NCBI GenBank assembly: GCA_000004695.1
Contig: CM000150.2
Coordinates: 3,808,001-3,872,000 of the forward strand
Origin: Dictyostelium discoideum
Taxonomy: Eukaryota
DNA length: 64,000 nucleotides
Direction: 5' to 3'
The first letter of the stretch is position 1, and every line of letters begins with the position of its first letter. Position numbers and translations under genes: made by a program. A model generated the notes under the pieces. That model was not told the DNA's origin. It saw nothing but the letters and a program-made list of their open reading frames with translations, and searched no databases. This document shows, piece after piece, positions 4,473 through 49,504 of the stretch.

Positions 4473-7400
4473 TCAATTTGAATTTGAACTTGAAGCACCT
4501 TCATAAGAATGATCTTCATGTTGATCATAAACAGAATTTGATTGAAATCTAATTAAAATAAATAATCTATCATCTTCACGTAACATAGTCGATGGTGAAG
4601 GATTTGTTAGTACATAACGAGTGATTTCATCATTATGAGAATCAAGATCATCAATTAAATGAGGAGGTAAACCTGATACAACTGGATTGATTGGTGTATT
4701 CATATTAGTTTTTTGAGAAGTACCAGAGGCATCTATTGGAGTTGAATTGTAACTATTGTTTAGATCTTGATTTGGGGAGGAAGCACCATTTACAGTATTC
4801 TTATTAGCACCACCACCTTTATGATGAGTTCTAAATAAAGCTATACAAATTATATTTGATTCGACTAAACTTTCAAATAAGTAACCAAATCTATGATGAT
4901 AGAAATGTTCAGGTAATGGTACTTGAAATACTTTGGTAACACTTTTTTTGAATTGATTATCAGTGTTCATACCAACCAATACACTAATCATACTTAATAA
5001 ATGTGGATTAAAGAAACATTGACATAATAAACTATCGAAAACTGAACTAAGGAAAACATTACCAGCTGCGAATGATGGTGAATGATAAAATGGTTGATTT
5101 TGTTTCCAATTGAAATTACCAGGTAAGAATTTCATATTTAAAGGTTCAGAGATTTCATAGATTGGAAATATTTTAATATTTTTTCTAGCTACTTCTCTTA
5201 TACAAACCATTGATAATAATGTTTCACGATCATTGAATAATAATTCTTCAGAGTTTGCATCATGAGTGAGTACGACGATCTTTGAACATTTATAGACACC
5301 AGCTCTTTTCAAATCACTAAATTCATAACATTTACCTTCAACTACATAAATCTCTGGATAACTTTCAATATATTTCCATTGATCTTCTGTTAGTTTTGGT
5401 GTTAAAATGACGATTGGTTCATAACGTCTAATATGACCTTCTCTAAGTGGTGAAATGAAATTTTCAATACAATCAACTGATGAACCTGCAATGATAATAT
5501 GATTTCTAATATTATCCATTGATTCTACACTATCTACAATACAATCATCTAAAAAGTGAGAACCCCAAAATCTTTTTGGTAATCTACTTGAAAATAAATC
5601 ATTTGAAGGTGGTTGTGGTATATCGGTCATTAAACTAGTTGAATTACCAGTAGTTGTACTAAAATCCATACTTGGTGGTCTACCAATAGTTTGATGTAAA
5701 TGTATATCGGTACTATTTAATGGATTAAAGTTATTGGAAGCAGCGGCAATATTATTAGTAGTATTATCTTCAAAATCAATTGAAGAATTACGTTTATGAT
5801 GTTGATGATGATGTTGTTGTTGTTGTTGTTGTTGTTGTTGTCTATGTTGACCATTTGTTAAAAATGTAAAATTATCAACACCAACAGTACCATTTGTATC
5901 AGTTGTAAGACCACCACCAATACTTGTTGTTTTTTGAAAAGTATTTTTTGAAATTGTATCATCACTACTATCAGTATTACCATTTAAAATATCTCTTTTC
6001 TTTTCTAATAACATTCTTCTTAATGATTTTTTATTCGTATTTTTATTATGAGATTTTGGTATGAATTTTAATTTACATTGATAAGATTTATCAATTGGAT
6101 CATATTCCCAAACCAATTTACAATCTTTATCCAATATACCAATTTCAGTATTACGTAGATTTGTTTGTTTAATTGCTTCAATCTTTCTTTTGACCAATTC
6201 AGTACCACAAAATTTAATTCTTTTAGATTGAAGTTTATTCTTTGCCAATAATACACCATAGGTACCTTCTTGAATGATGAATGAATTCTTTGGATTAATT
6301 TTAATTCTACGTTTATCACCACTTTGAACTTCTATACCAAAAATGATCATACCAAAAGTTTCATAAACCAATTGAACCACTTGTGAGAATGTTAAACCAT
6401 AGAATGCACTTGAAAAAGGTTGAGTGAAAATTTCATAAGAATTACCACTTGCATATTCATCGGAATCATTATATTTCTCAAGATCTGATCTTAATAAATT
6501 CATAACCAATGTGATAAAACCTGGTGAAATACAAGATTGTGCTAAAAGATTCATTTTTAATTCTTGTACTGATACTACTTGAGTTGCACCTGCAGCAATC
6601 ATTTTTCTCTTTAATCTTGGTACCATTGCTTGAGCGAAAATTGGTATAGTTGCATTGAATGATCTAACAGACATCACTCTTAAAATGTTTTCATTATCAT
6701 CTTGTTGTGAATGATTTAATGATTTCTTAGAGAAAATGAAAACTGCTTTCGATCGATCCAATTTAACCCTTTGAACATCTTGTTGACTACCTATTGAACC
6801 TTTGAAAAAGAAATATCTTTTTTTAATTCTATTGGTTAAAGAATCCCAAAATGAAGGTTGGTCAACATTTGATAGAATAATCACTGGCATTTCACCAATT
6901 CTAGAATTAAAGAAGAATTCCCTTAGAAATGTGGTTAAAGAACTTTCGAAAATGTTACCAATGATAGTTACAAATTTCTTCTTTTTAGATGGTTTATATT
7001 CACCATTCCATGATTTAGTTGCTGAAAGTACTGCAATTAATTTACCAGTTTGAACAGGTAAATAACCCAATGCAACCATAATCATTAAAATCGCTACCAT
7101 TCTACCCAATGTTGATCTTGGTGTTATATCACCATAACCAACGGTTGACAATGATACAACTGCATAATAAATTGAATCATGAAATTTAATACCTTCAATT
7201 TCACATATCATTGATGCAAATAAAATAATTAATATAATAATCGATAATATCAATTGAATTATTTGTTTCAATACTGATGTTGCGCCATGAAGTTTAAATA
7301 ATCTTGGAGCTTTTAAAATTCTTAAAACTCTTAAAAATCCTAATGGTGTTACTGGAATTGATGGTATCATTGTAATTAAAATTGGTACAATTGTAATAAT

Positions 7401-9625: not shown

Positions 9626-10924
9626 TTATTTTTCTAATAATTTATCAAATTTTCTTTGGTCTAAAACTATTGACTGAATTTCTTCAAATAATTTATCTTC
9701 AGAAATTTTTCTTTGAGGTAATTTATTGAATAAATCTATACATTCATCATAAGTTGCTTGAATTAGATCAGAGATGAAGTAACGTAGAATGGATAGTGCA
9801 GTTCTATATATGAAAATTTCACCTTCAATGAAAACTAAATCCCAAATACGAGTTGCAACATCCAATGGCAATGCTTTTGAGAAGAGGGTTGTTATCCAAT
9901 CGACTAAATAATTCTTTGCACTTATACCAATCTCTTTGAAATGTTTATGTAGTGGTGGTGTCAATGCCTCAACCGTTGAATCCATTGCCGCTAAATATTT
10001 TGGTATACCAGATTGATCTTGACGAAAGAATGGTAAGAAACAAACACTATTGATATGATTTGATAATGATAGAAATGCATCACATTTCTCCATATTCAAT
10101 AGAAACATCGCCGCCAAGAACGTCATGCCCGGCACGTACCCAATGTCGGGCCTGTAGCAAATATAGGCCCCCAACACGTCGATCAAATCGCTATGTAGCG
10201 GACCGCCCTTTTGAAAGATCATCAACGATGGGAACGTGTCTTGAATATCCTGTAAAATCAACGCCATATTAGTCGTCTCCAAATCCAACACGTCATCCTC
10301 GCCATCGGTTGATGTATTCATCGGTGATCTACTATGATGTATTGAATTATTTGCCTGTCTTAAATCTATATTTATATTTGGTGATTTCGATGATGACGAT
10401 AGTGATGATTTTAAAGGTGGTGAAGTAGTTTTATTATATGCGTTATTCGCATGCCCTAAAAATATATTGAAAAGTTCATCGGTGACACGAAGATCATTGC
10501 CTATGCATAGTCTCCAAATTTTGCCGCGCACTGCTGGTGGCAGTCCCCTCCATGATAAATCTTTTATCTTTTTTATATCTCTTTTCTTGCTGTTCTTCTC
10601 CCACACTGGTATGATATCCTCTTCCCATACCTTTCTTGCATCTATCAATGATCTCTCTTTTTCTTTTCTAATTGCATCTAGTTTCTCTTTTTCTTTTGCT
10701 TCTCTCTCTAAAGTTTTCTTTGCTTTCCTCTGTATCTCTTCATATTCTCTCTGATGTTTTAATACTTCCTCTTGTGATTTTGGTGGTAATGTTTTTGGTC
10801 TATCCAATGATGAACTTGGACTTAAAATTAATTTCTCAACTTTACCTGTTGTCACTAATTCTTTATAATTTTCTGGTAAATCACATTGATTATTATTATT
10901 ATTACTACTATTACTCTCTGACAT
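9626..10924 (-). CDS. TBC-domain Rab GTPase-activating protein (single exon as far as visible)
   Basis: The 432-aa ORF has a coiled-coil N-terminus followed by a TBC domain with an Arg finger (LPPAVRGKIWRLCIGN), 'DIQDTFPS' (the IxxDxxR motif position) and 'YVPGMTF' (the YxQ motif position). Confidence 0.75.
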   Translation of the reverse strand: MSESNSSNNNNNQCDLPENYKELVTTGKVEKLILSPSSSLDRPKTLPPKSQEEVLKHQREYEEIQRKAKKTLEREAKEKEKLDAIRKEKERSLIDARKVWEEDIIPVWEKNSKKRDIKKIKDLSWRGLPPAVRGKIWRLCIGNDLRVTDELFNIFLGHANNAYNKTTSPPLKSSLSSSSKSPNINIDLRQANNSIHHSRSPMNTSTDGEDDVLDLETTNMALILQDIQDTFPSLMIFQKGGPLHSDLIDVLGAYICYRPDIGYVPGMTFLAAMFLLNMEKCDAFLSLSNHINSVCFLPFFRQDQSGIPKYLAAMDSTVEALTPPLHKHFKEIGISAKNYLVDWITTLFSKALPLDVATRIWDLVFIEGEIFIYRTALSILRYFISDLIQATYDECIDLFNKLPQRKISEDKLFEEIQSIVLDQRKFDKLLEK

Positions 10925-11546: not shown

Positions 11547-12453
11547 TTTGAATCCTTTTTTACTTTCTTTTTTGTTTTTTTTTTTTGTTATTGATTTTTT
11601 TTTTATTTTTGAATTTTTTTTGTTATCGATTTCTTTTTTATTTTTTGAATTTTTTTTTAATTAATCAGATTTTTTTTTTTTTTTTTTTTTCTGAAAAGTT
11701 TCTTTTTGTTTTTTCCATTTAATTTTTAATTTTTAAAATTTCTTGAAAGTTTTTGATGCGCCTGACTTGACAGGAATTTTCTTTAGGACATAGATACTAT
11801 ACAAAAAAAAAAAAAAATAAAAAAAAATAAAAAAAATATATTTATTTATATAAAAAATAAATAAAAAAAAATTCAAAAAAAAAAAAAAAAAAAACAATAG
11901 TAATAAAAATAATAATAAATAAAAATGAAAATATAAAAAAAAAAAAGTGTTCCACAGAAACAAAAAAGAAAAACCAGTTATTATTGTAGTTTTCGAAATG
12001 ATATAATTAGATTATCTTTTTTCTTTCTATTGTTTTTGATGATGAAAATAAAAAAAATATTCAAAAATAAAAAAAAAATTTGATTTTGTCTAAAAACGAT
12101 GGATGCTTCCAAAAATTTTCTATTTTTTTTTTTTTCTTTATTATTTTTATTTTTTAAAATTTTTTTTATTTTTTATTTTTTTATTTTTTTTATTTTTTTT
12201 TAATTTTTTTTTTTTTCAATTTTTTTTTTTTTCAAATTTTACAACAGTTATACCGCACAAAAAAAAAATAATATAGAATTAATAAAGAAAATTAAATGTT
12301 TAAATAACAAATACAAATACATATCAATAATTAATAATAATAATAATAACAATAATAAAAATAATAATAATATTAGTGAAATCATAAATTTAAATTAAAT
12401 ATAATATTCAAATAATAAATAATAATTAATTAATTAAAAAAAAAAAAAAAATA

Positions 12454-13391
12454 ATGAGTGAAATAACACAAAAACCAGAATTAATAAAATATTTATCAAT
12501 TATACATCATTTAGGAGCAGCACATATAGAAACTATAAATGGATTTTTACAAAAACCATCATATATTGGTTTAAGTCCACCCATTACATTATTACCATCA
12601 GGGTCGGATCAAAAGTTAAACAATGATACATTATACCAAATTGCAACAGTTTTAGAGAGAATGGATGATACACAATTCGATGATGTTATATTTTATTTAA
12701 CCAAACAACTTAGACAACCATTGGACCCTGATGAACATCGCCGTCTATCAGAGATATCTTTAACATTGAAGGTATCGCCAGACTATTTAAGTTCAATTGG
12801 TAGAATCTATCAATCATTTCAATTATTCGAGCTATTAACTTGCCACTGTACAGAAGAACATATCAATAAATTAAAGAATGCCTTGACCTCGGTATTCCCA
12901 TTGCCAATGGAGTCCACCGAGGACCAGGATGTTTTAAATCAATTGGTGACACCATCAAAACAAAAGAATTATTTATCAATTTTAGAGAAACTAAAACAAT
13001 TGTTCATACGTACTCGTATCGACTCAATATTACACATTCAAAGTGAAATGATGGAATATCAACAAAATCCATTAGGTAAACAATCAATCACTCAACAACA
13101 TATATGTGACACTTTGGATATTAAATCTGACGAATATTATTTAGCCACTTGTTTAAAAGAGTTATTATTAACTGATGAATTTACTCTCACTTCACTCGCT
13201 GATACATTTCCAAAACTTCAACCATTACAATTACTTCAACTCTCATTATTACCATTTAAAAATATTTATGAAATTTTAGATTTACGTTTAAATTTTGTAA
13301 ATCTTTCTTCAACTTATCAAATTTATGCACCATTACCAAATGATTTAGAATTTAATTATCAATTACCAAATCCAAATAAGTAAGTTTTTTT

Positions 13392-13425
<34 letters not shown>

Positions 13426-15389
13426 CTTAAAAATTTCTAATTTTTTTTTATTGTTATTATTTTTTATTTTAGATTGGAAGTTAGAATTGTTGAACAACCA
13501 CCAGAAAAAGCAATTTATAAAAGAAATGTTAAACCAGCACCATCAGTTGTTTTTGATGGTGATTCAAAATTATTAAATGGAAATTATTATGTACATGTAG
13601 CATTATTAAGGTAAATTTATAAAATATTATTGAAAAAAAAAAAAAAAAAAAAAAAAAAATTTAATATTAATATTTTTTTATTATTTTTTGTTTTTTTATT
13701 AAAGATGTACTGATTTTATTGAAGAACCAACATTTTTAAATGGTGCAAGTAAACCATTTAAAATTGGATGTGGTAAAGTTGTTACATTTAAGAAATTAAA
13801 GATTTTAGTTACAAGTCATCAACAAGGTGAAACATTATTTTGTTTTAGATTTGATCTACGTTGCTATGCATCAGATCCAGAAACCAATCCAACTGATTTC
13901 ACAGTGGTTTCATCAGTACAAACCAATCCAATTAGTGTTTTATCACATTCAACTCAATTAAAGAGTACTGCCATAGCTGATTTACCAAAGGTTACAGAGA
14001 TTTTCCCATTGAATGGTCCAGCCACTGGTGGAACAAGAATTGCATTGTTGGGTTCAAATTTTGCTGATACACCTGCCACTCGTATCAAGTTTGGTAATAC
14101 AGAGGTTGTACCAGAGTTTTATAGTAATGGTACCTTGTTATGCTATGCACCAGAACATGCACCAGGACCCGTTGAAGTGAAAGTAAGTAATAGTGCAAAC
14201 TCTTGGAGTGTCACAATGTGCACCTTCACCTACGACAATGTAGCCACCATTGATAATGGTGATTCAGCTACCCAACAAACCAATGATTTACTATTACCAA
14301 AGAGTTTGTTTGGTTTGGATTTCTCAAAGACGTTCGATTCATCATTTATCATTAAAGGATTGGATAGTGCATCCAATAATTTACCATCAAATAGTGGTGC
14401 TCATCGTAGTTTTAGTACACAACATCAACAACAATCAAGATCTGTAAATCAATTGAATCACAATGGTTATGCTCCAATTCATTATGCTTGTACCTATGGC
14501 AATCAAGTACTCTTGGAGAAAATATTATCTTTACCATTGTCATCAATCAATTGTATCGATAAACATGGTAACACTGGTCTTCACTATGCTGTAATCTTTG
14601 GTCATTTCCAATTGGTTCAATGGATGCTTCGTGTTGGTGGTGCTTCACCAAATATTCAAAATTTCATTGGTCAAACTCCACTTCATTTAATCTCTACTAT
14701 TGCAAACAACCACCACAACAACGAAAAATGTACATTATTTATTGCAAGAGAATTGGTTAAATTTGGTGCCAATGTAAACATTGGTGACATTGATAGTGTT
14801 ACACCACTTCATTATTCTGCTGCTTTTGGAAAGTCTCAAATCCTTTCTTTCCTTCTCAATGAATGTGCTGTTGATTTATATTGTAGAGATGATTCTAATG
14901 AAACTGCCCTTCATTATGCCACTAGAGAACAACATTTAAATTGTATAGAAATTTTATTATCACATGCTTTCAATAAGGAGAGTGATTCAACAACAACAAC
15001 ATCAACAACAAATGAATATGATAATATTTTACATTATTTATCATCAAGTAAACGTTATAATTTTAATCACAATGATCATGAAGATAACGTTCCTCAAGAT
15101 GATGAAGACTTTGATGAAGATGATGAAAATAGTAATGAACCATTTCATTTATTAAAAAATGAAGATGGTGAAACATCATTCCATCTCTCTTTACTAAATA
15201 ATTTAAATAACTCTATAAATAACTCTAATAATAACAAAATCATTGATACCTTTTTAAAATATAATTCAAAATTCCAAGATAAAATTAATAATTCAAAAAA
15301 TTTAAACAAAACAGAACAATCTTTAAATAATAATCATAATAATAATAATAGCTCAATTCTAAAAATAATATCAACTTTTAATCATATTC

Positions 15390-15437
<48 letters not shown>

Positions 15438-15469
15438 GTAATAATAATTTACTTCAAGTAAATATATGA
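12454..15469 (+). CDS. IPT/TIG + ankyrin-repeat transcription-factor-like protein with a candidate Rel-homology-like beta-sandwich N-terminal to the IPT; 3 exons approx 12454-13379, 13473-13610, 13705-15469
   Basis: The first donor is AATAA|GTAAGT at 13380. Exon 2 (LEVRIVEQPPEKAIYKRNVKPAPSVVFDGD..YYVHVALL) ends at a GTAAAT donor at 13611, and a TTAAAG acceptor lies at 13704. Frame is continuous into the 13904 ORF. The IPT/TIG domain is clear (VTEIFPLNGPATGGTRIALLGSNF...GPVEVKV). At least 5 ankyrin repeats are present (GNTGLHYAVIFGHFQLVQWML; VTPLHYSAAFGKSQILSFLL; ETALHYATREQHLNCIEILL). The C-terminal tail is Asn-rich. Confidence 0.7.
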
Positions 15470-15764
15470 AAATTAAATAAAAAAAAAATAAATAAAAAAT
15501 TAATTTATTATAGAAAAAAAAAAAAAAATATTCATACCCACACCCAAACACACACACCCACAAACAAATTATTTCTTTTTTTAATTTTATTTATTTTTTT
15601 TTTATTTTATTTTTTTGTATTTTTAATTTACTTTTTAATCATTGGTCAACGTAAAAAAAAGTTTATTTTTTTTTTTTTTTCTTTTTATTTTTCTTTCTTT
15701 TTAATCTATCTTTCTTTTTATTTTTCTTTATATATTTATTTTTAAATTAATTAATCTATTAGTC

Positions 15765-15853: not shown

Positions 15854-18081
15854 ATGAATAAAATTTTAATTTTATTTTTATCAGTAATTCTTTTATCACT
15901 ATTTTCAATATTTTTATTAAATTCAATAAATAATCATGATATTGAAATTAAAAATCCAGAAAATAATAAAAATTATAATAATATTAAAAAACAAAAAAAA
16001 ACAGTTAATAATAGACCAGAAAAAATAAAGTTATCAGGTGGTATAACATCAACATTATCAGATATACAATCAAATATTATTAATCAATTAAATAAAAAAA
16101 ATGAATTAAAAATAAAAAATGAAAATAAAAAAAAAAATAATAAAAATAATAAAAATAAAAAAAATAAAAGTAATAAAAAATTAGAAACTTTAGATAATAA
16201 TAAAAATAATAATGAAAATAATAATAAAAATAATATTAATAAAAATAATAAAAAAGTTAAAAATAATTTAATTAATTTTAAAAAAGATGAAATATCAATA
16301 TTTGGATTTAAATGTGAAAATGGTGGTATTGGATTTCATGATGGTTGTATTTGTCCATACGGTTTCAAAGATGAATTTTGTGAAACACCTTCAAAAAATA
16401 TTTCAACTTGTTTTGACCCAAGTTTTAAAATTGAATACTTGTATAAATTAGATCAAGTTGATCCACAAACATGTAAATCAAAAATTGGTTCATTATGTTG
16501 TTGGTCAAAATTTAGAAGTGATAATAAAATTTCAAATTCAATTTTAAATTATAAACAATTATTATTAAAAACAAATAATATTCAAAATTATGAATTAAAT
16601 AACTCTTCAAAATTCAGTATTAATAATAATGATAATCATGATTTAATTATTAAATCAATTTTACAATCATATGGTCCATGGGATGAAAATGATAAATTAT
16701 TTTTAAAATATATTATTATGAATAATATTCAAAAGACAAATTATATTTTAAAATATTCTAATCCAGTTTCACAAAATTTTAATTATAAATTAAATATTAA
16801 TAATAATAATTATAATAATATTAATAATAATAAAAATAAACCTTCAAATAATCATCAAACTCAATTACCAGCATTATCTTTAATACCATCTAAATCAAGA
16901 GCAAAATTAGCATTCGTTTTATTAATTCATGATATTGATATGCCAGCTATAAAATTATTATTCAATCACATTTATAAAGTTAAACATTATTATGTTATTC
17001 ATGGTTTGTATTTTAAAAAGTTTAAATAATTTTTATTATTATTTTTTTACTAATTTTATTTTTATAATTATTATTATTATTATTATTTAGTTGATGCTAA
17101 TTTTAAAGATAGAGTAAAAATAAATCAATTAAAAGAATATGTTAAAAATTTAAAGAATCAAAATTATAAAAAGGATATATTCATTCCAAAGAAATATCCA
17201 AATAATATTGAAATATTACAAGAAAGATTTCAAAATAGTTGGGGTTCAATTTCATTGGTTTATTCTGAATTGGCATGTTATACAAAATTAGTTGATATGG
17301 TATTAGATAGGTCAATGGTAACTGGTGTTGATGAAAAATGGTCACATGTTATTAACCTTTCAATTAATGATTTCCCAATTAAACCAATCTATAAATTAGA
17401 ACAATTCTTTTCTCAAAAATCAAATATACAAAAGAATTTTATAAATGAAGATAATATTTTAAAAGAATCTGAAAGATATAATGTAATTATAATTATGATA
17501 TTAATATTAATAATAATAATATTTAAATTACTCATTCATAATTATATTAATTTTATTTTTATATTATTTTAATTTTTTTATTATTTTAGAAATCATGGGT
17601 TGAATGTGGTAAGAGACAAATGGTATCTATTAATTTTGGTAGTGTTGGATTAGAGGATGCTGATGCTGATGGTGATAATTATCATTTATGTGGTTTAGAT
17701 AATGGTGGTGTTGAAAAAACAATTAATAGAAAAAATTATAAAGAAGGTTCACAATGGCATTTTATTACATTTAAATTTGCACATTATTTAATTTCTGATT
17801 TCAGATCAATTTCAAGATTATTCTCAATGAAATTCTCTTTTATTCCAGATGAATCTTTTTTCCAAATTGCAAAGTCTGAATCAAAAGATTTATTAATTGA
17901 TCAAGATTGGGATATTGATAATTATAGATTCATTCCATGGTATAATAGTGATAAAGCTTTAATTGTTGGAATGGACGAAATAAAGAGTAATTTCAATAAT
18001 AATTCAAGATATTTCTTCACACGTAAAGTTTATACATCAGATATTAAAAATGAAATAATTGAAAAATATTTAAAAGATTAA
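15854..18081 (+). CDS. Glycosyltransferase family 14 (core-2/I-branching / xylosyltransferase-like), type II membrane protein; 3 exons approx 15854-17003, 17091-~17480, 17590-18081
   Basis: An N-terminal signal anchor (MNKILILFLSVILLSLFSIFLL) is followed by an Asn/Lys-rich stem and an EGF-like Cys module (FGFKCENGGIGFHDGCICPYGFKDEFC). GT14 motifs are 'LAFVLLIHDIDMP...HYYVIH|VDANFKDR', 'NSWGSISLVYSELACYTKL...WSHVINLSINDFPIKP' and 'KEGSQWHFITFKFAHYL'. Introns are GTTTGT..TTTAG and GTAATT..TTTAG, and frames are consistent with the track. Confidence 0.7.
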
Positions 18082-18452: not shown

Positions 18453-19580
18453 ATGGAGGATAATATAACTTCAATTGTAATTGATTGTGGATCTGGTATG
18501 TGTAAAGCTGGAATTGGTGGTGAAGAATTTCCAAGAGTTTCATTTCCATCAATTGTAGGAAAGCCAAGATTTGAAAAAACAATGTGTGCTATTGGTAATA
18601 AAGAATATTATGTTGGTGATGAAGCTCAATCTCAAAGAGGAATGTTATCATTAAAATATCCAATTAAGAATGGAATAGTTGTTAATTGGGAATATATGGA
18701 AAAATTGTTATTTCATATGTTTTATAATGAATTACGTGTTTCTCCAGATCAGTATCCAATTCTTTTCACTGAATCACCATTAAATCCTAAATCAAATAGG
18801 GAAATGTTAACACAAATAATGTTTGAAAAATTTAATGTACCAGCTTTATATATAGCAATTCAAGCTGTCCTTTCATTATATGCGTCTGGTCGTACATGTG
18901 GTATTGTTTTGGATTCAGGTGATGACGTTACACATACAGTGCCAATTTATGGTGGTTATGTTTTACAACATTCAATAATTCGTTTAAATTTTGCTGGAAG
19001 TGATTTAACAGAATATATGGCAAAATTATTATTAGAACGTGGGTATTCATTTACAACAACTTCTGAAATGGAAATTGTTAAATCAATTAAAGAGAAATTA
19101 GCATATGTTGCTATTAACTTTAATGCTGAAATGTCAAAACCAATCGATACATTAGAAACAACTTATCAACTACCAGATGGTCAAATAATAATAATTGGAA
19201 ATGAAAGATTTCGTTGTGCTGAAGCGTTATTTCAGCCATCAATGATTGGCTTAGAATGTGATGGTATTCATGAAACAATTTTCAAATCAATAATGATGTG
19301 TGATATTGATATTCGTAAACATATGTATGCAAATATTTTATTATCAGGTGGTAATACAATGCTCTCAGGAATTTCCGACCGTATCTATAACCAACTAAGA
19401 GAATTGGCACCAAATAATATGAAAATTTTAATTGTTGCTTCCCCAGAAAGAAAAAATCTTGTATGGATAGGTGGATCAATTTTAACTACTCTTCCCCTAT
19501 TCCAAGAAATGTGGATCTCAAAAGAAGAATATGATGAACATGGCCCATCAATTATTAATAAAAAAGTTGGATTATATTAA
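18453..19580 (+). CDS. Actin family protein (divergent actin), single exon, 375 aa
   Basis: The ORF is full length and actin-like throughout ([22 protein letters not shown]...[18 protein letters not shown]...[27 protein letters not shown]...). It has diverged from canonical act8-type actin. Confidence 0.85.
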
Positions 19581-26759: not shown

Positions 26760-28838
26760 ATGGAAAGATTATCAATTATTTGTAATCATTTTGAAGATAA
26801 TGATTCATTAGAATCAAATGAAGTTGCAGCAAATTCTAATAATAATAATATTAATAATAATAATAATAATGGATTAGCAACATTAAATCAAAATTCATTA
26901 AATAATTTAATTCAAATTAATTCAAAGATTAACTTGGATTCAGAAAAGATTGAAAAAATTACAAAAATATTATTTGACCATCCAGATAAAGAATGGACAG
27001 CAGCACGTAATAGATTAATAGAGGTATTGAAAGATCCAATCTTTGAGTGTAAACCATATGCGTCATTCCATGAACAAAGAGAATTGGCACAAAAGAGAGT
27101 AGCACATTTAGCATCGATACCAGGTGGACCAATTTTAAAAGTTGGTGAAATCGTATCAAACTATAAGAAATTTTCAATGTTTCAATCTACATTGGTCTAT
27201 TGCGATATGTCAATGGCAGTGAAATCCTCAGTGCATTGGGGTTTATTCGGAGCATCGGTATGTTGTTTAGGTTCAGAGAAACACGAGAAATATTACGACG
27301 ATATCGATACTTGCAAAATGAGTGGCTGTTTTGCATTGACAGAGTTGGCTCATGGTTCAAATGTGAAAGGTGTTGAAACCATTGCAGAGTACGATAACAA
27401 GACACAAGAGTTTGTAATTCACACACCATCAGACACAGCACAAAAGATTTGGATTGGTAATGCTGCAACCTATGGTTGTTTTGCTACAGTGTTTGCAAAT
27501 TTAATTTCAAATGGCGAGAATTATGGTTTACATCCATTCCTTGTACAAATTAGAGACACCACAACATTGAAACCATTGGCAGGCATCACAACAGCTGATA
27601 ACGGACCAAAGATTGGGTTGAATGGTGTTGATAATGGTCGTTTATGGTTTAACAAGGTTAGAATCCCACGTGATAATCTTTTGAACAAGTTTGGTGATAT
27701 TGATGCCAATGGTGTTTATAGTACACCAATTAAGAATCCAAGCGTTCGTTTCAATTCAATGTTAGAGTCGTTGATTGGTGGTCGTATCACTGTTGCAAAT
27801 ATGGCAAATTCAGCAGCAAAGATGGGACTTTACATTGCTTTACATTATGCATTCTCACGTCGTCAATTTGGTCCATCCAATGGTAAAGAGGTGTTGTTAA
27901 TCGATTATATCACACATCAACGTCGTTTATTCCCACAATTGGCAGAGGTTTACATCAATCAAGTCGGTATAAATTATGTTATCAATAAATTCCAAAATAG
28001 AACTGAAAAGGATGCAAGAGATGTCTTCCTATTGGCATGTGGTTTCAAAGCAGCAACAACTTGGAATCGTTCAAAAACTTTACAACTCTGTCGTGAATGT
28101 TGTGGTGGTCAAGGTATGGCAGCAAGTAATAAAATTGGTATTCTTCGTGCTGATACCGATGTAGATTTAACCTACGAAGGTGATAACACAGTACTAATGC
28201 AAGCCGTTGCCAAAGCATTGCTTCAAGAGTTTAAATCCTATTTCACCGGTACAAAACGTATAACTGGTATGTTGAGTTACACCTATTCCAAGGGCCACAT
28301 TGGTATCTTTTTAAGAAATAAAAACTTTTTCACCAAACGTTTACACACAGAATCCCATCTATTGGATCCAGATGTATTGTTGGATGCTTTCATCTATCGT
28401 GAATTCAAACTCCTTCGTAACTTGATCAAAACTCTTAGAGCCAAAGTAAAGAATGAAAAAATGACAGGTCTTCAAGCTTGGAATAGTAGTTTGGATTTAG
28501 TACTTCAATTGGCAAATGCTTACATTGAAAGAGTTTCCATTGAGAAATTCTTGGAAGAAGTTCAAAAATCTCCAGAAGATATTAAACCAATCTTAACTTC
28601 ACTTTGTATCCTCTATGAATTAACAAAGATTGAAAATGATCTTGGTTGGTTCCTTTCAAATAAATACTTTGCACCAGTTAAAGGTCAAGCAATTGGTAAT
28701 ACAATCAATAAGGTTTGTGGTGCATTAAAAGATCATGCAATTCCATTAGTTAAAGCATTTGATATTCCATCTCAATTTTTAACTGCTCCAATTATTGGTG
28801 ATTGGGTTTCTCATTTTTCAAATCCAAATAATTGTTAA
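26760..28838 (+). CDS. Peroxisomal acyl-CoA oxidase, single exon, 692 aa
   Basis: The ORF is full length with ACOX N-terminal, middle and C-terminal domains (…FALTELAHGSNVKGVETIAEYD...HTPSDTAQKIWIGNAA...GGRITVANMANSAAKMGLYIALHYAFSRRQFG…). Confidence 0.9.
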   Translation: MERLSIICNHFEDNDSLESNEVAANSNNNNINNNNNNGLATLNQNSLNNLIQINSKINLDSEKIEKITKILFDHPDKEWTAARNRLIEVLKDPIFECKPYASFHEQRELAQKRVAHLASIPGGPILKVGEIVSNYKKFSMFQSTLVYCDMSMAVKSSVHWGLFGASVCCLGSEKHEKYYDDIDTCKMSGCFALTELAHGSNVKGVETIAEYDNKTQEFVIHTPSDTAQKIWIGNAATYGCFATVFANLISNGENYGLHPFLVQIRDTTTLKPLAGITTADNGPKIGLNGVDNGRLWFNKVRIPRDNLLNKFGDIDANGVYSTPIKNPSVRFNSMLESLIGGRITVANMANSAAKMGLYIALHYAFSRRQFGPSNGKEVLLIDYITHQRRLFPQLAEVYINQVGINYVINKFQNRTEKDARDVFLLACGFKAATTWNRSKTLQLCRECCGGQGMAASNKIGILRADTDVDLTYEGDNTVLMQAVAKALLQEFKSYFTGTKRITGMLSYTYSKGHIGIFLRNKNFFTKRLHTESHLLDPDVLLDAFIYREFKLLRNLIKTLRAKVKNEKMTGLQAWNSSLDLVLQLANAYIERVSIEKFLEEVQKSPEDIKPILTSLCILYELTKIENDLGWFLSNKYFAPVKGQAIGNTINKVCGALKDHAIPLVKAFDIPSQFLTAPIIGDWVSHFSNPNNC

Positions 28839-29508: not shown

Positions 29509-32415
29509 ATGTCAAAATTAAAAGAAATATCAAGACAATCAACAACATCATGGAGTCCAATTGCACAATATCCAGATTATATGGCAGTTGGTACAGTAAC
29601 AGGTACAATTGGAGCAGATTTTGATACATCATCTAAATTAGAAATCTATTCATTAGATATTACCAATGAAAGCAAGCAAATGACATTAAAAGGGTCAACA
29701 TCATCAAGTACAAGATTCAATAAAGTAGTATGGGGACAAGCATCAAGTAATTTTCAAAATGGTATTATTGCTGGTGCAATGGATAATGGTACAATCAATC
29801 TTTGGGATCCAACAAAGATTTTAGCATCAGATGCCACTGATGGTGGTGGTAGTGATGATCAATCATCATTGATCGGTGTTGGTCAAAGACACTCTGGTCC
29901 AGTTCAATCCATCGATTTTAACGTTCAAAATCCAAATCTTTTAGCATCTGGTGGTTCAGATTCTGAAGTTTTCATTTGGGATTTATCCGATCCAACTCAA
30001 CCATCTGCTCTTAATCCAGGTAGTAAATCGCAACAATCTTCTGATATCACTTGTGTTGCATGGAATAAAAAAGTAGCACATGTAAGTATTTATAAATAAA
30101 TAAATAAAAAAATAAATAAATAATAAATAATAATAATATTTTATTAATTTTATTATTTATTAGATTTTGGGTTCAGCATCATATAATGGTTATATTGTAA
30201 TTTGGGATTTAAAATCAAAGAAAACATTAATGACAATTAATGATCGTAATAGAAAATGTAAATATAGATCAATTGTTTGGCATCCATCAGAGGCAACACA
30301 AATCGTTGCAGCATCAGAGGATGATGATCATCCAGTGATTCAAGCATGGGATTTACGTAATACTACATCACCAGTTAAATCAATGGAAGGTCATAAAAAA
30401 GGTGTTTGGGGTTTATCTTGGTGTCCATCTGATAATGCTTTATTATTATCAACTGGTAAAGATAATAAAACATTTTGTTGGAATTTTGATCGTCAAGAAA
30501 TACTTTGTGAAATTAATGATAATAATAGTAGAAATAATATTAATAACAATAGCAATAATAGTAATAGTGATAATAATAATGGTAATACAGATCCAAATGC
30601 ATGGAATTTCGAAGTTCAATGGTCACCACGTGTACCAGCTTTATTATCAACATCATCATATGTTGGTAAAGTTAATGTTTATTCATTACAAGATGTAAAT
30701 GAGAAATCAACTAGTGGTAGCAGTGCTGGTCAACTCAATGCATTGGGTATTCAAGAACAAACTAGCCAAATCACACCAACAATTAAACATACACCAAATT
30801 GGTTATTAAGACCATGTGGTGCTGCTTTTGGTTTCGGTGGTAAGATCGCAGTTTTTGGTAGAAATAAAAAAGTTACTGCCGCTGCCAATGGTGCAACTTC
30901 ACCATCATCATCTTCTTCACCAGCATCATCAGTTCAACAATCACAATTACAACAACAACAACGTGTAATTCATATCTCACATGTTACAACTGAAGTTGAT
31001 ATTGTTAAATCAAGTGAACAACTTGAAAATGTCATTCACACTGGTCAATATGAACAATATTGTCAAGAGAAAATCGATCAATCAACTTCCGATGAAGAGA
31101 AATCAATTTGGGGTTTCCTTAAAGTTAAATTCGCCAAAGATGATCGTTTAAAGATTTTAGATTATCTCGGTTATGATATTGAAACCATTAAAAAAGAATT
31201 AAAACAATTCCTTGGAACTTTACCAGAATTACCAATTGAAAGTGGTTTCAATGAATTACCAATTGAAAATGTCGATGATCAAAGTAAACCAGAACCAACA
31301 ACAACTACCACCAATGAAACTGTCCATCTTGAACCAGTTGTTGATGAAAATAATAATGTTGTAGATGCTGATAGTTTCTTTGATACTGCCGCTTCTGATG
31401 CAAATAAAGAACAACAAGACGATTCATCATCATCACCATCAACTAAATCACCAACAACTACAACAACACCTATTGAATTCCCAGGTGATGAAAAAGAACA
31501 AATGATTACAAAAGCATTATTAGTTGGTGATCATAATAGTGCAGTTGAATGTTGTCTTCGTTTAGGTAGATATTCAGATGCATTGATTTTAGCACATGCA
31601 GCAGGTCAAGAACTTTGGAAAAAGACTCAAGAGGCTTACTTTGAGATTGTACGTAGTCCATTTGGTAGAGTTGTATCATGTATTGTTAAACGTGATTTCC
31701 AACTTTTGGTAAAGAGTGCCGATCTAAAGGATTGGAAGGCTTCATTGGCTATCCTTTGTACTTATGCCCCTCCAACCGATTTCAAAATTTTATCAGGCAT
31801 TCTTGGTGATCGTTTAGATAAAGAAGCAAGTGATTTGAAATCCGCTATCCTTTGTTACATTTGCGCTGGTGATATCGATAAAACCGTCGATATTTGGAGT
31901 CGTGTCTCTCAACAACATCAACAACAACAACGTCAATCTTTAACTTCAAGTGGTAATAGTATCACTGTTTTAGAACAAGAGTCAAATAAAGATCTTCAAA
32001 ATTTAATTGAAAAAGTTTCAATATTTAGAAGTGCTTGTAATGGTAATAGCAATAACAATACATTAAATCAAGTTTTATCAATGAAATATGCTAAATATGC
32101 AGAGATTTTAGCTTCACAAGGTAATCTTTCAGCTTCATTACGTTATTTAGCACCAATTACAAACTCACAATGTAAACAAGAATATGGTGTACTCTTTGAT
32201 AGAGTTTATCGTGCTACCTCTAATCATCAAGGTATTCCACAACCACCATTCCCATTCCAATTAGTTGATGTTTATTCTTCAAATCAACCAATTCAACAAC
32301 AACAACAACAACAACAAAATAAAGCTCAACAAGTTGGTCATCAACATCAACATCAACACCAACATCAAAACCAACATCAACATCAACATCAACACCAACA
32401 TCAACATCAACCACC

Positions 32416-32449
<34 letters not shown>

Positions 32450-33658
32450 ATGGGTAGACAAAATACATTTAATCAACCACCACAACCAATGGGACAACAC
32501 CAACACCAACAACAACAACAACAACAACAACCACCAATTATGATGAATCAATCACCAATGCAAAATAATAATAATAATAGAATACCAATGATGAATCAAC
32601 CACCAATGATGAATCAACCACCAATGATGAATCAACCACCAATGATGAATCAACCACCACAAATGATGAATCAACCACCACAAATGATGAATCAACCACC
32701 ACCACAAATGATGAATCAACCACCACCACAAATGATGAATAATAATCAACCACCAATTATGATGAGACCTATGCAACCAAGTGGTCCATCACCAATGAAC
32801 CCACCACCAACAATGAATAACACTCAACCACCACCAATGATGAACACAATGGGTGGTCCATCATCAGTCAATAATTCTCAACCTCCAATTATTCCAATGA
32901 ATGGTAATCCACTACCAATGAATCCAATGAGTCCAATGATGTCTGATAAATCAAATCAACCACCAATGAATCCAATGATGAATCCAATGAACCCAATGAA
33001 TCCAATGATGAATCCAATTCAACCAACTGCTCCACCACCAATGAATCCAATGATTCCACAAGGTGGTAGTCCAATGATTAATCATCCACCACCACCAATG
33101 AATCCAATGATTAATAATGGTCCAGTTTCAACACCACCAATGAATCCAATGATGAATCAAGTTGTACCACAAAATATTTCACCACCACAAATGCCAACAA
33201 GATCACCAGTTTTAGAGAATAAATCATCATCACCATCAAGTGAATCATTTACATCACCAGCACCAAAACCAAACGTTCACAATAAAACACCATCCATTAT
33301 CACTGGTCAATTGGGTGTAACTACACCATCTGAAGGTCCATCAAATGAAGACACTGAAAGATTCGTTGAGAAATTACAAAGATCCATTCAAGAATTAAAT
33401 GGTAGAACTGATAGCAAGGTTTGGGAGGATGCCAATAAAAGATGTCAAGGTCTCATCAATAAGGTTTCAAAGAAAGATATCTCTGCTGAAGCTTTCAAAG
33501 CTCTCGATGCAATTTTAGCTTCAATCGTTGAAAAAGATTTCAAAAAAGCTTCCGATACTTATATTCAAATCACTTCAACTCCACTTTGGGGTGAAGTTGG
33601 TTCACAATCAATGGTTGGCCTTAAACGTCTCATTGATCTTGGTTTAAAATCTCATTAA
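29509..33658 (+). CDS. sec31: COPII coat subunit Sec31 (WD40 N-terminus, Pro/Gln-rich C-terminal region); 2 exons approx 29509-30081 and 30164-33658
   Basis: MSKLKEISRQSTTSWSP...AWNKKVAH|ILGSASYNGYIVIWDLKSKK matches the Sec31 N-terminus across the GTAAGT..TATTAG intron. WD repeats are followed by a long HQ-repeat and an 'MMNQPP' proline-rich region and a conserved C-terminal block. Confidence 0.85.
32290..32760 (+). repeat. Coding tandem repeats in Sec31: (CAA)n poly-Gln, (CAHCAA)n His-Gln repeat, and ~7 copies of a 21-24-nt 'ATGATGAATCAACCACCA(CAA)' unit encoding MMNQPP(Q)
   Basis: The periodicity is visible in both DNA and protein (QHQHQHQHQNQHQHQ…; PMMNQPPMMNQPPMMNQPPQMMNQPPQMMNQ…). Confidence 0.85.
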
Positions 33659-34008: not shown

Positions 34009-36717
34009 ATGTGTAAATATAATGATCATAAATATTTAGTAGAAAAGGTAGATAGATTGGTATTACCAGAAAATGTTGTACCAATTAAATATGATTTACA
34101 TTTAAAACCAAATTTAAAAGAATTTACTTTTAAAGGTGAAGAGACCATCACAGTTCAAGTAAAACAACCAACAAAAACCATAACTATACATTCAATTGAA
34201 ATTGAAATTCAATCAGCTTCAATAAAATCATCATCATCATCTCAATCATCAAAATCAATTACATTTTATGAACCAGAAGAAGTTGTCATCTTTGAATTTG
34301 AAAATGAATTATCAGTTGGTGAATATTGTTTATCATTGGTATTTACTGGTTTATTAAATGACAAATTAAAAGGTTTCTATCGTTCAAAGTATACTGTTAA
34401 AGGTGAAGATCGTTATTTAGCAACAACTCAATTCGAAGCCACCGATGCTCGTCGTTCTTTTCCATGTTTTGATGAACCAGCTCATAAAGCAGTTTTCAAT
34501 ATCACTTTAACTGTCTCTGAATGTCATACCGCTATTTCAAATATGGAAGAAAAATCAATTACTCCAAATAATGATGGTACTAAAACTTATATATTCGAAC
34601 AAACTCCAATTATGAGTACATATTTAGTTGCTTATATTGTTGGTGATTTAGAATATATTGAAGGTAAAACAAAGGGTGGTATTAGAGTTAGAGTTTATAA
34701 AGCTAAAGGTGTTGAAGGTGAAAGTGATTTCGCTTTAGATACTGGTATTAGAGCAATGGATTATTTCATTGATTATTTCAATGTACCATATCCATTAACT
34801 AAATGTGATCATGTTGCTGTTCCAGGTAAATTTTTTTTCTATTTTATTTTCATTTTTTCAAATATTTAAAATACTAATTTTTTCTTTTTTTATTATTATT
34901 ATTATTATTATTTTATGAAAATACTGTTTTATACTACCACTTGGGAAGATTTTGCCGCGGGTGCGATGGAAAATTGGGGTTTAATTACATATCGTGATGT
35001 AATTTTATTAACATCAGATAAAACAACATTAGCAACTAAACAAGATATTGTTGGTGTTATTGGTCATGAATTAGCACATCAATGGTTTGGTAATTTAGTA
35101 ACAATGGAATGGTGGAGTCAATTATGGTTAAATGAAGGTTTCGCTACATTTATGGGTTATTTAGTAACAGACTATTTATATCCAAAATGGAATGTATTTT
35201 TAGAGTTTTCACAATCCTATCGTAACTCTGCACTCTCATTGGATGCATTAGATAATTCACATGCCATTGAAGTACCAGTACGTTCATCAGCAGAGATTTC
35301 AGAGATCTTTGATGATATCTCTTATAATAAGGGTTCATGTGTAATTCAAATGGTTGAAAGTCGTTTTGGTGAATCATTTAGAAAGGGTCTTCATCATTAT
35401 TTGACCAAACATTCCTACAAGAATACCATCACCGAAGATCTTTGGGCATCAATTTCACATACAAGTGGTGCTGATGTAGATTCATTCGTTAGATCTTTCA
35501 CAAAGTATCCAGGTTATCCAGTTGTATCCATTCAAGAGACTGAAAAAGAAGGTGAATTCTCATTGACCCAAAAGAAATTCAGATCAGATGGTCAAGTTGA
35601 AGAGAAATCCGATGACCCAATTTGGAATTGTTTCATTAAATTCCAAACAAAGAATGGTCCATTCGAATTCACTTTAACCAAGAAATCCGATACCGTCACC
35701 ATTCCAAACTATAAAAAAGGTGATTGGCTTAAACCAAACTATGGTCAATGTGGTTACTATCGTATTGCCTATACATCGGAATTAATCAAAGCATTGGTAC
35801 CTGTAATTGAGTCATTGGAACTTCCAGCTCAAGATCGTTTAGGTTTATTATCAGATTGCTATTACCTTTGCAAGAATGGAAGTACACCAATCTCATCCTA
35901 TATGGATTTGGTATTCTCTTATCACAATGAAACCGATAGTGATGTTTGGACATTCATCATTAAATCTTTGGATGAAATTAGTGAATTAAGTTTTGATCAA
36001 ACCTACAAAACTGACTTGGAAGAAATGATCCGTAAATTGTTGAAACCATTATCACAACGTTTAGGCTTTGAAGTTAAATCAGGTGAATCATCCTCTGACA
36101 CTTTGTTAAGAAATAAAGTAAACTCTTATTTGGGTATTTTGGGTGACAAAGAGATTGTGGCCGAGGCTAGAAAGAGATTTGAGCAATTCAAAGTCGACCA
36201 ATCTTCTTTACCTTCCGATATCCGTTCAAGTGTTTTAGTCACTGTTGTAAAGAATGGTTCCGAAGCTGAACAACAAGAAATTATCAATAGATACCTCGCT
36301 TCCAATGATATTGCAGAGAAATCAAGTTTATTGTCAGTTGTTTGCAAATCACCATCCAGTGCATTGGTATTGAAGGCTTTGGAATTCTCTGTCTCAAAAG
36401 ATGTTAGAACTTGTGAATCCTATATGCTTTGGAGAGTCGGAAATGAATTTAAACCAGTAGTTTGGAAATATTTCACTGAAAACTTTAAATCAATCAATGA
36501 AACCTTTAATCAAAATGTTTTATTCGCTTATATGATCTCTTTTGCTTTGTCCTCAAAAATGACTGATCAACAATTACAACAAGTTGAAGATTTCTTCAAA
36601 CAAAATCCAGTTGCAATTGCTGATCGTTCAATTAAACAAGATTTAGAACAAATTAGAAATAATACAAAATGGTTTAATTCATTTAATAAAGATTTATTAA
36701 ATTGGATTAAAAAATAA
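34009..36717 (+). CDS. M1-family zinc aminopeptidase (puromycin-sensitive aminopeptidase-like), ~862 aa; 2 exons approx 34009-34825 and 34949-36717
   Basis: The GAMEN motif (DFAAGAMENWGL) is reconstituted across the intron (…VAVP|DFAAG…). The HEXXH+E zinc site is HELAHQWFGNLVTMEWWSQLWLNEGFA. The GTAAAT donor is at 34826 and the acceptor AG at 34947-48, and frames match the track. Confidence 0.85.
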
Positions 36718-44050: not shown

Positions 44051-44142
44051 ATTCAAGACAATATTTAACCAATTCATCAAAATTTGGTAAACCTAAACCA
44101 GTTACTGGATCCCAACCACTTTTAGATTTAAAACCATTGGTA
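43941..44142. repeat. Tandem ~100-bp duplication: a degenerate copy (43941-44030) of the last ~30 codons + stop of the adjacent sedolisin gene, separated from the genuine 3' end (44049-44140) by a T-run
   Basis: 'gacaatgtttgaccaattcatcaaaattggtaaacctaaaccagttactggatcccaaccacttttagatttaaaaccattg' and 'gacaatatttaaccaattcatcaaaatttggtaaacctaaacc...aaaccattg' are about 90% identical. The upstream copy has a 1-bp deletion and a Leu-Glu-stop to 'stop-earlier' changes, so it is a non-coding pseudo-fragment. Confidence 0.7.
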
Positions 44143-45851
44143 CAACATTTATAATTATTTTCACCAAAGTCAATATCAAGGAAAGAGTTTGGATGATCTC
44201 TTGCAATTTTATAAAGTAATGGATTGAAAAGACCAATTGGACTTTGATTTTTTTGTAATCTTTGGTCGTTAATTAATGATAATAAGCCGGCAATAATTGG
44301 AGCTGATGCAGAAGTACCTCCAATTGGCATCAATTTGTCTTTGTAGAGTATAACGACATTTTCTGAGAAAGATGAGATATCAGGGAAACCTCTTCCAGAT
44401 TGATTGTAGAAACTAGAGAGAGAACCGTTTAACCACTCGATATAGGAAGAACATTCATCCACTTGATACCATGGACGGGAGAAATAGTTACTAAAACCAC
44501 CACCAGATATTTCATCACCAATGATACTGCCATCCTTCTTTTTAATTACCCCCCCAACTGCCAATACAAAACGGGAAGATGCTGGCCAACCTGGTGAAAA
44601 TGAATCACAATCATCATTACAACCAACACCAAAATCACCACTTGAGAATACTATTGTTCTACCCATTGCTGCGTATTTCTTAAATTCAGTATCTACACGA
44701 TCAGTATATGCCAATCCAATGGAAGATTCATCATCACCATAGGAAATACTATGAACCAATGGTAATTTTGGATTTGATGATAAATCAACTAACCAATCTA
44801 AAAATGGTTCTTGACCTTCATGTAACCCACCTGTACTCACGATCCAAGTGGGTACATCTGGTGCCATTGCCATGATGTATTGAATATCCAATGCCGTTTC
44901 AATACCTGGATTCAAATTTTGATTTGGTCCAATTATATTATCGACTTGAGATGGTTCCAAACCAAAACGATATTGAAAAATTTTTAGATCACTTGGTGAG
45001 AAATACTCTTTAAGAAACTGAGCGATAGCTTGAGAATTACCAAGATGAGTTGAATTGGTACTGGTTTGACTTACATTCATCTCCTTTCTAATTAAATCTG
45101 GTGATAAGTATGGATCACCATTTCTTGCAGCAACTTTCTTATCATTAAATGATTTAATTTGTTTATTATTTCTTAATGATTCTAATTCATATCCAATACC
45201 ATTAACTTTACCACCACCACCACCACCAGCACTACCACTGCTTTCTTTTGGTCTGGGTGACAATAATGGTAAATGATTTACACCACCAATGAAATCAATA
45301 TGATCATAAAGTTCTCTTGGAATAGTGTAAGGATCAAGAGAACGAAAGAATGATTGTTTGGATAATTTATGTACCATTTTATTATATCTAACCGATAGTA
45401 ATTCTTCTGCTTTATCAATAGAAACAATGGTACGAATGAAATCGCCGCTTTTTGTCACTGTGAATTCATTTATATCATTTTCAATTAACCAATTCTTTAC
45501 AGCATCAATTGATTCATCCAATGGTTTAACCCATTCTTTAATCTCTTCAAAAGTTTTATAACTTCCATACAATGAATCATTTGGATCACTAACTCTCCAC
45601 ACGAAATCTTCCAACTCAACGATATTTCTTTGTCTAATTCCAAATGTTAATTCAATTTGGGCGGAAAATATATTTTCAATTTCTGTAATTTTCCAGACTT
45701 TCTTATTCAATGAAATTGGCTTGGAATGTTCAACAAATCTTCTTAACCTTTGGGGTGTCAAATGTTTTTTATTTTTAATTTTTTTACAATTTACATTTGA
45801 AATAAATAAAATGAATAAAATTATAATTATTAAATTAAATTTAATATTCAT
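44049..45851 (-). CDS. tpp1: Tripeptidyl-peptidase I / sedolisin (peptidase S53) with signal peptide and pro-domain, single exon, 600 aa
   Basis: The N-terminal signal is MNIKFNLIIIILFILFISNVNC. A pro-peptide region and an S53 catalytic domain with the catalytic Ser motif 'GGTSASAP' follow, and the acidic residues are conserved (…SGDFGVGC…). Confidence 0.85.

Positions 45852-47246: not shown

Positions 47247-49504
<2,258 letters not shown>

Follow-up and report, generated by a model that had tools for sequence, protein, structure and literature searches.

The 64,000-nt stretch of Dictyostelium discoideum DNA considered here (contig CM000150.2, positions 3,808,001 to 3,872,000; hereafter the window, in whose coordinates all positions are given) has an overall GC content of 0.234, which is Dictyostelium-type, and carries on its forward strand a three-exon gene for a 942-amino acid (aa) protein, a candidate transcription factor (TF). 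The protein consists of a large N-terminal helical domain, a basic beta-sandwich (the beta domain), an IPT/TIG domain, a block of ankyrin repeats, and an Asn-rich tail (Table 1). A preliminary description of the locus had compared this layout with the NF-kB precursors p100/p105 and with Relish, and had raised the possibility of a bona fide Rel-homology protein.

Joining the three exons gives a single uninterrupted coding sequence (CDS) of 2829 nt, and the two introns have GTAAGT/GTAAAT...AG ends. Every peptide quoted in the preliminary description is present in this gene model, and removal of both introns restores one frame. A transcript contig of 2846 nt (SRR24091725_3958; Logan, locus L006, public run SRR24091725) lacks both introns, aligns with the window in three blocks (12343-13379, 13473-13610, and 13705-15353), and is identical to the predicted spliced CDS over both junctions; it starts 111 nt 5' of the ATG and shows 100% identity through exon 1. 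The RT-PCR across the introns that had been proposed is answered by this contig, which gives the two junctions base for base. The product is 98% identical to the NCBI D. discoideum protein KAM9960468 (P0001, 933 aa), and the orthologues from Polysphondylium, D. purpureum, and Tieghemostelium are colinear with it over both splice junctions. The three-exon gene is real and expressed, and its exon joins are backed by the transcript. The 3' end of the contig (positions 2822-2846) is Illumina adapter (AGATCGGAAGAGCGTCGTGTAGGGA); because the contig ends in adapter, the 903-aa contig protein P0045 represents an assembly truncation inside the Asn-rich tail rather than an isoform.

Exon 1 had been described as visibly richer in GC than its neighbors, which did not hold: the GC contents of exons 1, 2, and 3 are 0.295, 0.275, and 0.302, respectively, and within the gene GC is highest (0.39-0.40) where exon 3 encodes TIG. 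A foreign or GC-anomalous origin of exon 1 was rejected, given its ordinary coding GC and its conservation across the protein family. Both introns contain unbroken A runs of ~25-30 nt between T-rich stretches, and the region upstream of the gene (12100-12240) consists of long T runs.

The same exon, in which no recognizable domain had been noted earlier, encodes an all-alpha domain of ~290 aa that is conserved across the family and confidently modeled, and that has no match in Pfam or the PDB. The IPT/TIG domain was recovered by Pfam as expected, and a phmmer search against PDB sequences matched it to the IPT domains of MET, plexin, and EBF/COE. Where at least five ankyrin repeats had been predicted, 5+1 were found: five Ank units recognized by Pfam, with repeat cores at aa 611, 645, 721, and 755, and a sixth ankyrin-like unit, which is kept in the proteins P0002 and P0005 as 'ND(D/M)(F/M)E(N/T)(A/P)(I/L)HL'. 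The orthologues carry acidic inserts at the matching place between the fifth and sixth units. The length of the Asn-rich tail differs between strains (P0001, 933 aa; P0042, 922 aa). Sequence scans of the 942-aa protein revealed no hydrophobic transmembrane (TM) segment, the maximal Kyte-Doolittle mean over 19 residues being 1.0 and lying inside the ankyrin region, and likewise no IQ consensus, no glycine-rich window, and no basic or classical nuclear localization signal (NLS) cluster; there was also no Death-domain match in Pfam. The earlier statements that a C-terminal TM segment and IQ motifs are missing were thereby borne out. Among the folded domains, only the beta domain is clearly basic (family median isoelectric point, pI, 9.26; net charge +5); the other three, N-terminal, TIG, and ankyrin, are acidic.

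Table 1. Features of the TIG-ankyrin gene and of neighboring genes in the window.
Feature	Position	Strand	Basis or description
5' untranslated region, minimum extent	12343-12453	+	Start of transcript contig, whose first ATG is at 12454
Exon 1 (aa 1-308 plus 2 nt)	12454-13379	+	Open reading frame (ORF), donor GTAAGT at 13380, junction in transcript contig
N-terminal conserved all-alpha domain (aa ~7-287)	12472-13314	+	14 helices
Basic beta-sandwich, candidate DNA-binding domain (CudA-like/Rel/Velvet fold; aa 309-441)	13378-13963, including both introns	+	Motifs, AlphaFold2 model, hhalign, pI
Intron 1 (93 nt, GT..AG, A-run)	13380-13472	+	Missing from transcript contig
Exon 2	13473-13610	+	Spliced CDS, transcript contig
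Intron 2 (94 nt, GT..AG, A-run)	13611-13704	+	Missing from transcript contig
Exon 3, including stop codon	13705-15469	+	Spliced CDS, transcript contig
IPT/TIG domain (aa 449-531)	13985-14233	+	Pfam PF01833, E 8e-20
Ankyrin repeats 1-5 (aa ~611-786)	14471-14998	+	Pfam Ank_2 (E 3e-38), Ank, Ank_4, Ank_5, Ank_3
Acidic D/E-rich insert (aa 806-832)	15056-15136	+	pI 4.05, 15 D+E in aa 787-837
Sixth ankyrin-like unit (aa ~838-870), 'NEDGETSFHLS'	15152-15250	+	Motif G-x-T/S-x-F-H-L-S at aa 843
Asn-rich low-complexity tail	15251-15466	+	Read from sequence
BK potassium-channel gene	4476-7370	-	Ion_trans_2, BK_channel_a, Slo-like RCK
RabGAP-TBC gene	9629-10924	-	
C/A-rich element	15535-15568		'cccacacccaaacacacacacccacaaacaaa'
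391-aa ORF	15854-17029	+	No Pfam match at E<=1e-5
897-aa ORF	60259-62952	+	No Pfam family at E<=1e-5
Housekeeping genes	18453-19577, 26760-28835, 30167-33655, 34915-36714, 48092-49501	+	
Housekeeping gene	44052-45851	-	

The beta-rich segment recognized in the preliminary description is a real domain, although with ~135 aa (aa ~309-441) it is longer than the ~110 aa assigned to it. Across 26 aligned homologues (alignment A1) it has 19 invariant positions, which form the motifs Q-P-P...Y-K-R-N-x-K-P, R-C, K...T-S-H-Q, and S-H-S-T-Q-x-K. The AlphaFold2 model built on this 26-sequence alignment (pLDDT, the predicted local distance difference test, 87.4; pTM, the predicted template modeling score, 0.79) is an eight-stranded sandwich in which the invariant polar and basic residues sit not in the core but in three loops, namely after strand 1, in the long loop before the central strand, and in the linker into the TIG domain.

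As modeled, the beta domain is an s-type immunoglobulin (Ig) sandwich of the Rel/p53-like structural class. It has the fold of the Rel N-terminal domain, and the model places it in a fold common to the DNA-binding domains of Rel (N-terminal), Velvet, STAT, Runt, and NDT80/MYRF. Foldseek ranked VeA first (E 7e-5), followed by STAT5, MYRF, and Runt. A table of structural neighbors, whose figures carry no label, gives VosA 11.4, NF-kB p52 10.8, VeA 10.7, VelB 10.6, and STAT6 10.4, then RelA/c-Rel 9.9, MYRF 9.8, NFAT5 9.2, p105 9.0, and Runx1 9.0, with NDT80, CSL, CP2, Grainyhead, p53, EBF, and T-box next lower. Velvet is the best structural neighbor of the modeled domain. Model and Pfam together agree with the earlier proposal of a Rel/p53-like, DNA-binding-type sandwich directly N-terminal to an IPT/TIG domain and with ankyrins C-terminal to it, and the domain order bears out the likeness to p100/p105/Relish. 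One member of alignment A1 has a marginal Pfam match (E 0.017) to STATa_Ig (PF18214), the Ig-like DNA-binding domain of Dictyostelium STATa. An older proposal relates the CudA core to STAT-type DNA-binding regions, and this match echoes it. STAT proteins, including Dictyostelium STATa, differ from the 942-aa protein in having a coiled coil, a linker, and an SH2 domain, all missing from the latter, and the two have no significant sequence match.

The first homologue search returned 38 homologues, and the beta domain is kept in all that were retrieved. Searched with a profile, 1.84 billion cluster representatives yielded 360 matches at E<=1e-3, including 79 at E<=1e-30, and all named sources of the family are amoebozoan (Dictyostelia, Pelomyxa, Dracoamoeba, and Trichosphaerium). 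The family falls into two groups. Group 1, with the signature 'EQPPE..VYKRN', has a TIG domain and ankyrin repeats and contains the gene of the window. Group 2 ('RQPP..TVYQRILRPFP') combines the helical domain with the beta domain and TIG, lacks ankyrin repeats, and ends right after TIG; its members P0123, P0129, P0136, P0149, P0158, and P0161 and the locus L007 (1501-3699) have the extended signature 'LKIARQPP..TVYQRILRPFPSVM ... FKKLKILSTSQQQGT ... SDPIEVFSHT'. P0129 is encoded between dynamin and RhoGEF genes in the assembly GCA_001606155.1, which we take to be Tieghemostelium lacteum; on that assumption, dictyostelids carry both groups. A homologue search seeded with P0129 returned no named proteins. 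The part of a dictyostelid TF catalogue available to us gives six Cud genes for D. discoideum and records RHR/RHD, CG-1/CAMTA, COE, and CSL as missing (PMC6873476). Its Cud rows (DLA_05577, 09490, and 05575 among them) do not include the T. lacteum orthologue, DLAC_06073, an absence that falls short of complete proof. As far as that part of the catalogue reaches, the family is apparently uncharacterized and uncatalogued among dictyostelid TFs.

At the level of sequence, the CudA-like core appears to be the only statistically supported relative of the beta domain. The Amoebozoa-specific CudA-like (Cdl) factors include CudA, SpaA, Cdl1a/b, Cdl2, and Cdl3, form five orthogroups in dictyostelids, and share this core of ~120 aa. 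For comparison, 18 core sequences (CudA, Cdl1-3, Physarum, and Acanthamoeba) were drawn from alignments supplied with Kin et al. 2022 (PMC8808424). Against these cores, hhalign aligned the 125-sequence family alignment over 92 columns with a probability of 91% (P 1.1e-6, score 42.5), compared with scores of 11.9+-2.2 for column shuffles, at most 28.7 for block shuffles, and 14.2 for the reversed alignment. A profile hidden Markov model (HMM) of the CudA core gave at least 15 bits, with a maximum of 27.5, to 29 of these 125 domains of the family. Conversely, the family HMM scored 13-19 bits on the CudA, Cdl3, and Acanthamoeba cores vs. at most 7.3 on Rel homology domain (RHD), Velvet, Runt, and p53 controls, among which the RelA and VeA sequences were validated by Pfam and PDB, and those of c-Rel, p50, Dorsal, NFAT1, RUNX1, and p53 were not separately validated. 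A homologue search with the CudA core led to 13 proteins, all 13 carrying Pfam PF28397 (DG1062_N), and precomputed weak or faint matches to PF28397 are located on the beta domain of 5 of the 38 homologues of the 942-aa protein.

Individual motifs also correspond, 'RIKVLSSQHEDMFF' of the CudA-like proteins to 'LKI.VTSHQQGETLF' of the family and 'PIKV(I/V)SKP.Q.KK' to 'NPI.VLSHSTQLK'. Both sets of proteins are amoebozoan, and both cores are basic (pI ~9.1-9.3). On the other hand, the CudA-like proteins have no TIG, ankyrins, or N-terminal helical domain of this kind, their core being followed by a basic stretch that resembles an NLS and by a helical segment that resembles a coiled coil where the 942-aa protein has TIG and ankyrins; the Q-P-P...Y-K-R-N-x-K-P signature in the N-terminal half of the beta domain is specific to the family. 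Of the two groups, group 2, with up to 27.5 bits, is the nearer to the CudA core, and the link appears to be remote and carried mainly by this ankyrin-less subgroup. We place the beta domain in the Rel/Velvet/STAT fold class beside the CudA-like core, as its divergent sister and not as a Cdl orthologue. For CudA and SpaA, DNA binding is experimentally established and takes place through the conserved core (PMC5923282).

The most likely reading, which we hold with moderate confidence, is that this member of a conserved amoebozoan family is a sequence-specific TF in which a divergent CudA-type, Rel-fold domain is fused to TIG and ankyrin repeats. Several points weigh against it. The hhalign probability drops to 17.9% (P 1.4e-3) with the 26 ankyrin-bearing sequences alone. 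The CudA-core HMM gives the D. discoideum domain itself no more than 11.1 bits, which is under any family threshold, and its 98%-identical twin KAM9960468 has no precomputed match to PF28397. The mode of dimerization is not transferable from the CudA-like proteins, because a basic stretch and a coiled coil follow their core rather than TIG and ankyrins. The sequence scan found no classical NLS, and nuclear localization is putative, as is DNA binding, on which the basic charge of the beta domain and the conservation of its loops bear.

In the favored reading of a divergent CudA-type factor, we infer DNA binding, dimerization, and a role of the ankyrin block along the following lines. If the domain works as in Rel, Velvet, and CudA, one end of the sandwich would face the DNA, and the contacts would come from its three invariant loops, of which Y-K-R-N-x-K-P follows strand 1, T-S-H-Q-Q-G-E precedes the long central strand, and S-H-S-T-Q-L-K links the sandwich to the next domain. 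By inference from established Rel structures, these may correspond to the DNA-contacting loops L1, L2, and L3 of Rel proteins. The IPT/TIG domain, which begins ~8 residues after the beta domain, would supply dimerization and thus the reading of a dyad site; the dyad bound by CudA has GAA half-sites. The 5+1 ankyrin block would act as a protein-interaction module, either for docking of partners or for masking of the DNA-binding/TIG unit in cis in the manner of p100/p105; the masking idea, drawn by analogy alone, counts among the weaker points of the reading. The all-alpha N-terminal domain may be a family-specific regulatory or oligomerization module.

The strongest rival has the protein bind no DNA at all: beta-sandwich, TIG, and ankyrins would form a cytoplasmic scaffold or signaling adaptor, the likeness to TF folds being purely topological. 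Such a protein would fit the missing NLS, the large acidic helical domain, which is without precedent among TFs, and the frequency of TIG and ankyrin domains in non-nuclear proteins. We nevertheless consider it rather unlikely, since the beta domain is basic amid otherwise acidic domains, polar or basic invariant residues occupy its loops and not its core, and it shows homology to the experimentally DNA-binding CudA core.

The structural ranking of VosA, VelB, and VeA raises a second alternative, an amoebozoan offshoot of the Velvet family. Velvet proteins dimerize via the velvet domain itself and are without TIG and ankyrins. Apart from the model, this alternative draws on an hhalign alignment that spans 117 columns end to end at 21% identity, with 'L.I.QPP' on 'L.V.QQP', 'RN.KP.P.V' on 'RRPVDPPPV', and 'SNPI.VLSH' on 'S.PF.VFSA'. 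Its hhalign probability is nonetheless 3.2%, obtained with a Velvet profile of two sequences; this value and the 1.9% obtained against five RHD sequences are weak negatives, because the control profiles are thin. Furthermore, there is no significant sequence or profile match between the beta domain and Velvet, PF11754 matched none of the 26 members, and the 'AKKFPG...' helix specific to the C-terminus of Velvet is absent. The 360 matches among 1.84 billion representatives are far below the expectation had Velvet proteins been reached. Velvet is otherwise distributed in fungi plus Capsaspora (PMC10845976). With the link to CudA-like proteins being much stronger, a Velvet origin is improbable.

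An equally speculative scenario, and in our estimate a long shot, derives the amoebozoan sandwich-IPT-ankyrin protein and the opisthokont p100/p105 from one common ancestral gene, with Velvet and CudA-like proteins arising from it by domain loss. If true, the Rel-type domain with cis inhibition by ankyrins would date to the ancestor of Amoebozoa and Opisthokonta and not to the opisthokont base, and signals would control the protein by having its ankyrin block removed or displaced. The p105-like layout itself may stem either from convergence or from very deep homology.

Narrower is the claim that the gene is a bona fide Rel-homology gene of the p100/p105 type, that is, that the combination of RHD, IPT, and ankyrins predates opisthokonts and has its amoebozoan orthologue in the window. 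It has in its favor the identical order of Rel-fold sandwich, short linker, Ig-like IPT, and six ankyrin repeats, and hhalign places the 'L.I.EQP' start, as the preliminary description had suspected, in register with 'VEIIEQP' of RelA and keeps later strands in register. However, the HMMER check that had been suggested spoke against it: no hmmscan match to PF00554, PF16179, or PF03859 was found at E<=10 in the 942-aa protein, the isolated domain, or the 26 family members, whereas RelA as positive control scored 243.8 bits with PF00554. In the same direction, the family HMM reached at most 4 bits on the five RHDs, and the family profile, searched against all PDB sequences, matched no Rel protein and retrieved solely 3dev, a chance match (E 0.17). 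Velvet and STAT match equally well. The recognition loop RxxRxRxxC (RFRYxCEG) is absent, the equivalent loop being the invariant Y-K-R-N-x-K-P, and the Ig-like domain after the beta domain is matched by the generic TIG family PF01833 and by the IPT domains of MET, plexin, and EBF, and not by RHD_dimer (PF16179). None of the remaining hallmarks of NF-kB p100/p105/Relish was found either: no NLS, no death domain, no IKK-type context, and no glycine-rich region of the kind that serves NF-kB as a stop signal; the ~290-aa N-terminal helical domain is, in turn, extra relative to these proteins. According to published surveys, Rel arose at the opisthokont base (PMC8763368), and the available part of the dictyostelid catalogue has RHR/RHD absent (PMC6873476). 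The 942-aa protein is not a true Rel-homology protein, and orthology with p100/p105 is very improbable. Least credible is a CAMTA-type (CG-1, TIG, ankyrins, and IQ) or Mga2/Spt23-type (IPT, ankyrins, and membrane anchor) factor, which shares the order of TIG and then ankyrins downstream of a function-conferring N-terminal region but was rejected, as no member has a CG-1 match, there is no IQ motif or hydrophobic segment, an Asn-rich tail takes the place of the C-terminal TM anchor that follows IPT and ankyrins in Mga2/Spt23, and the same part of the catalogue gives CG-1/CAMTA as absent from Dictyostelia (PMC6873476).

In the genomic neighborhood, a gene for a calcium-activated BK potassium channel lies ~5 kb upstream of the TIG-ankyrin gene, with the RabGAP-TBC gene between them. 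P0048, a 2269-aa gene model in a dictyostelid-like record, fuses a BK channel to the TIG-ankyrin orthologue, and P0034, the homologue from Pelomyxa, bears the name 'BK potassium channel' yet carries only TIG and ankyrins. The association with BK channels reflects either a conserved neighborhood or a propagated mis-annotation. On the 3' side, a C/A-rich element is found ~70 nt past the stop codon, in an otherwise ~10% GC intergenic region from which it stands out strongly. It is followed by a 391-aa ORF whose N-terminus is hydrophobic and signal-like; this ORF also has a long stretch rich in Asn and Lys and, in 'CENGGIGFHDGCICPYGFKDEFC', a Cys-containing segment with EGF-like spacing. The surrounding genes are ordinary housekeeping genes, encoding actin, acyl-CoA oxidase, a WD40/Sec16-like protein, an M1 aminopeptidase, a sedolisin-type peptidase, and a V-type ATPase subunit.

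The CudA-like group includes master regulators of the spore, stalk, and cup fates. The gene described here, together with its ankyrin-less paralogues, would add a second and larger branch to the CudA DNA-binding superfamily, for which an architecture of DNA-binding domain, TIG, and ankyrins has not been described. It offers a knock-out-ready candidate regulator in a model organism whose TFs have been carefully catalogued, and its N-terminal all-alpha domain would represent a new domain that is widely conserved in the family. The modeled structure would tie the 'Amoebozoa-only' CudA class to the Rel/Velvet/STAT fold, which bears on the kinship of the lineage-specific p53-like DNA binders of animals, fungi, and amoebae, and on whether the p105-type union of a DNA-binding domain with cis ankyrins had a single origin or arose repeatedly.

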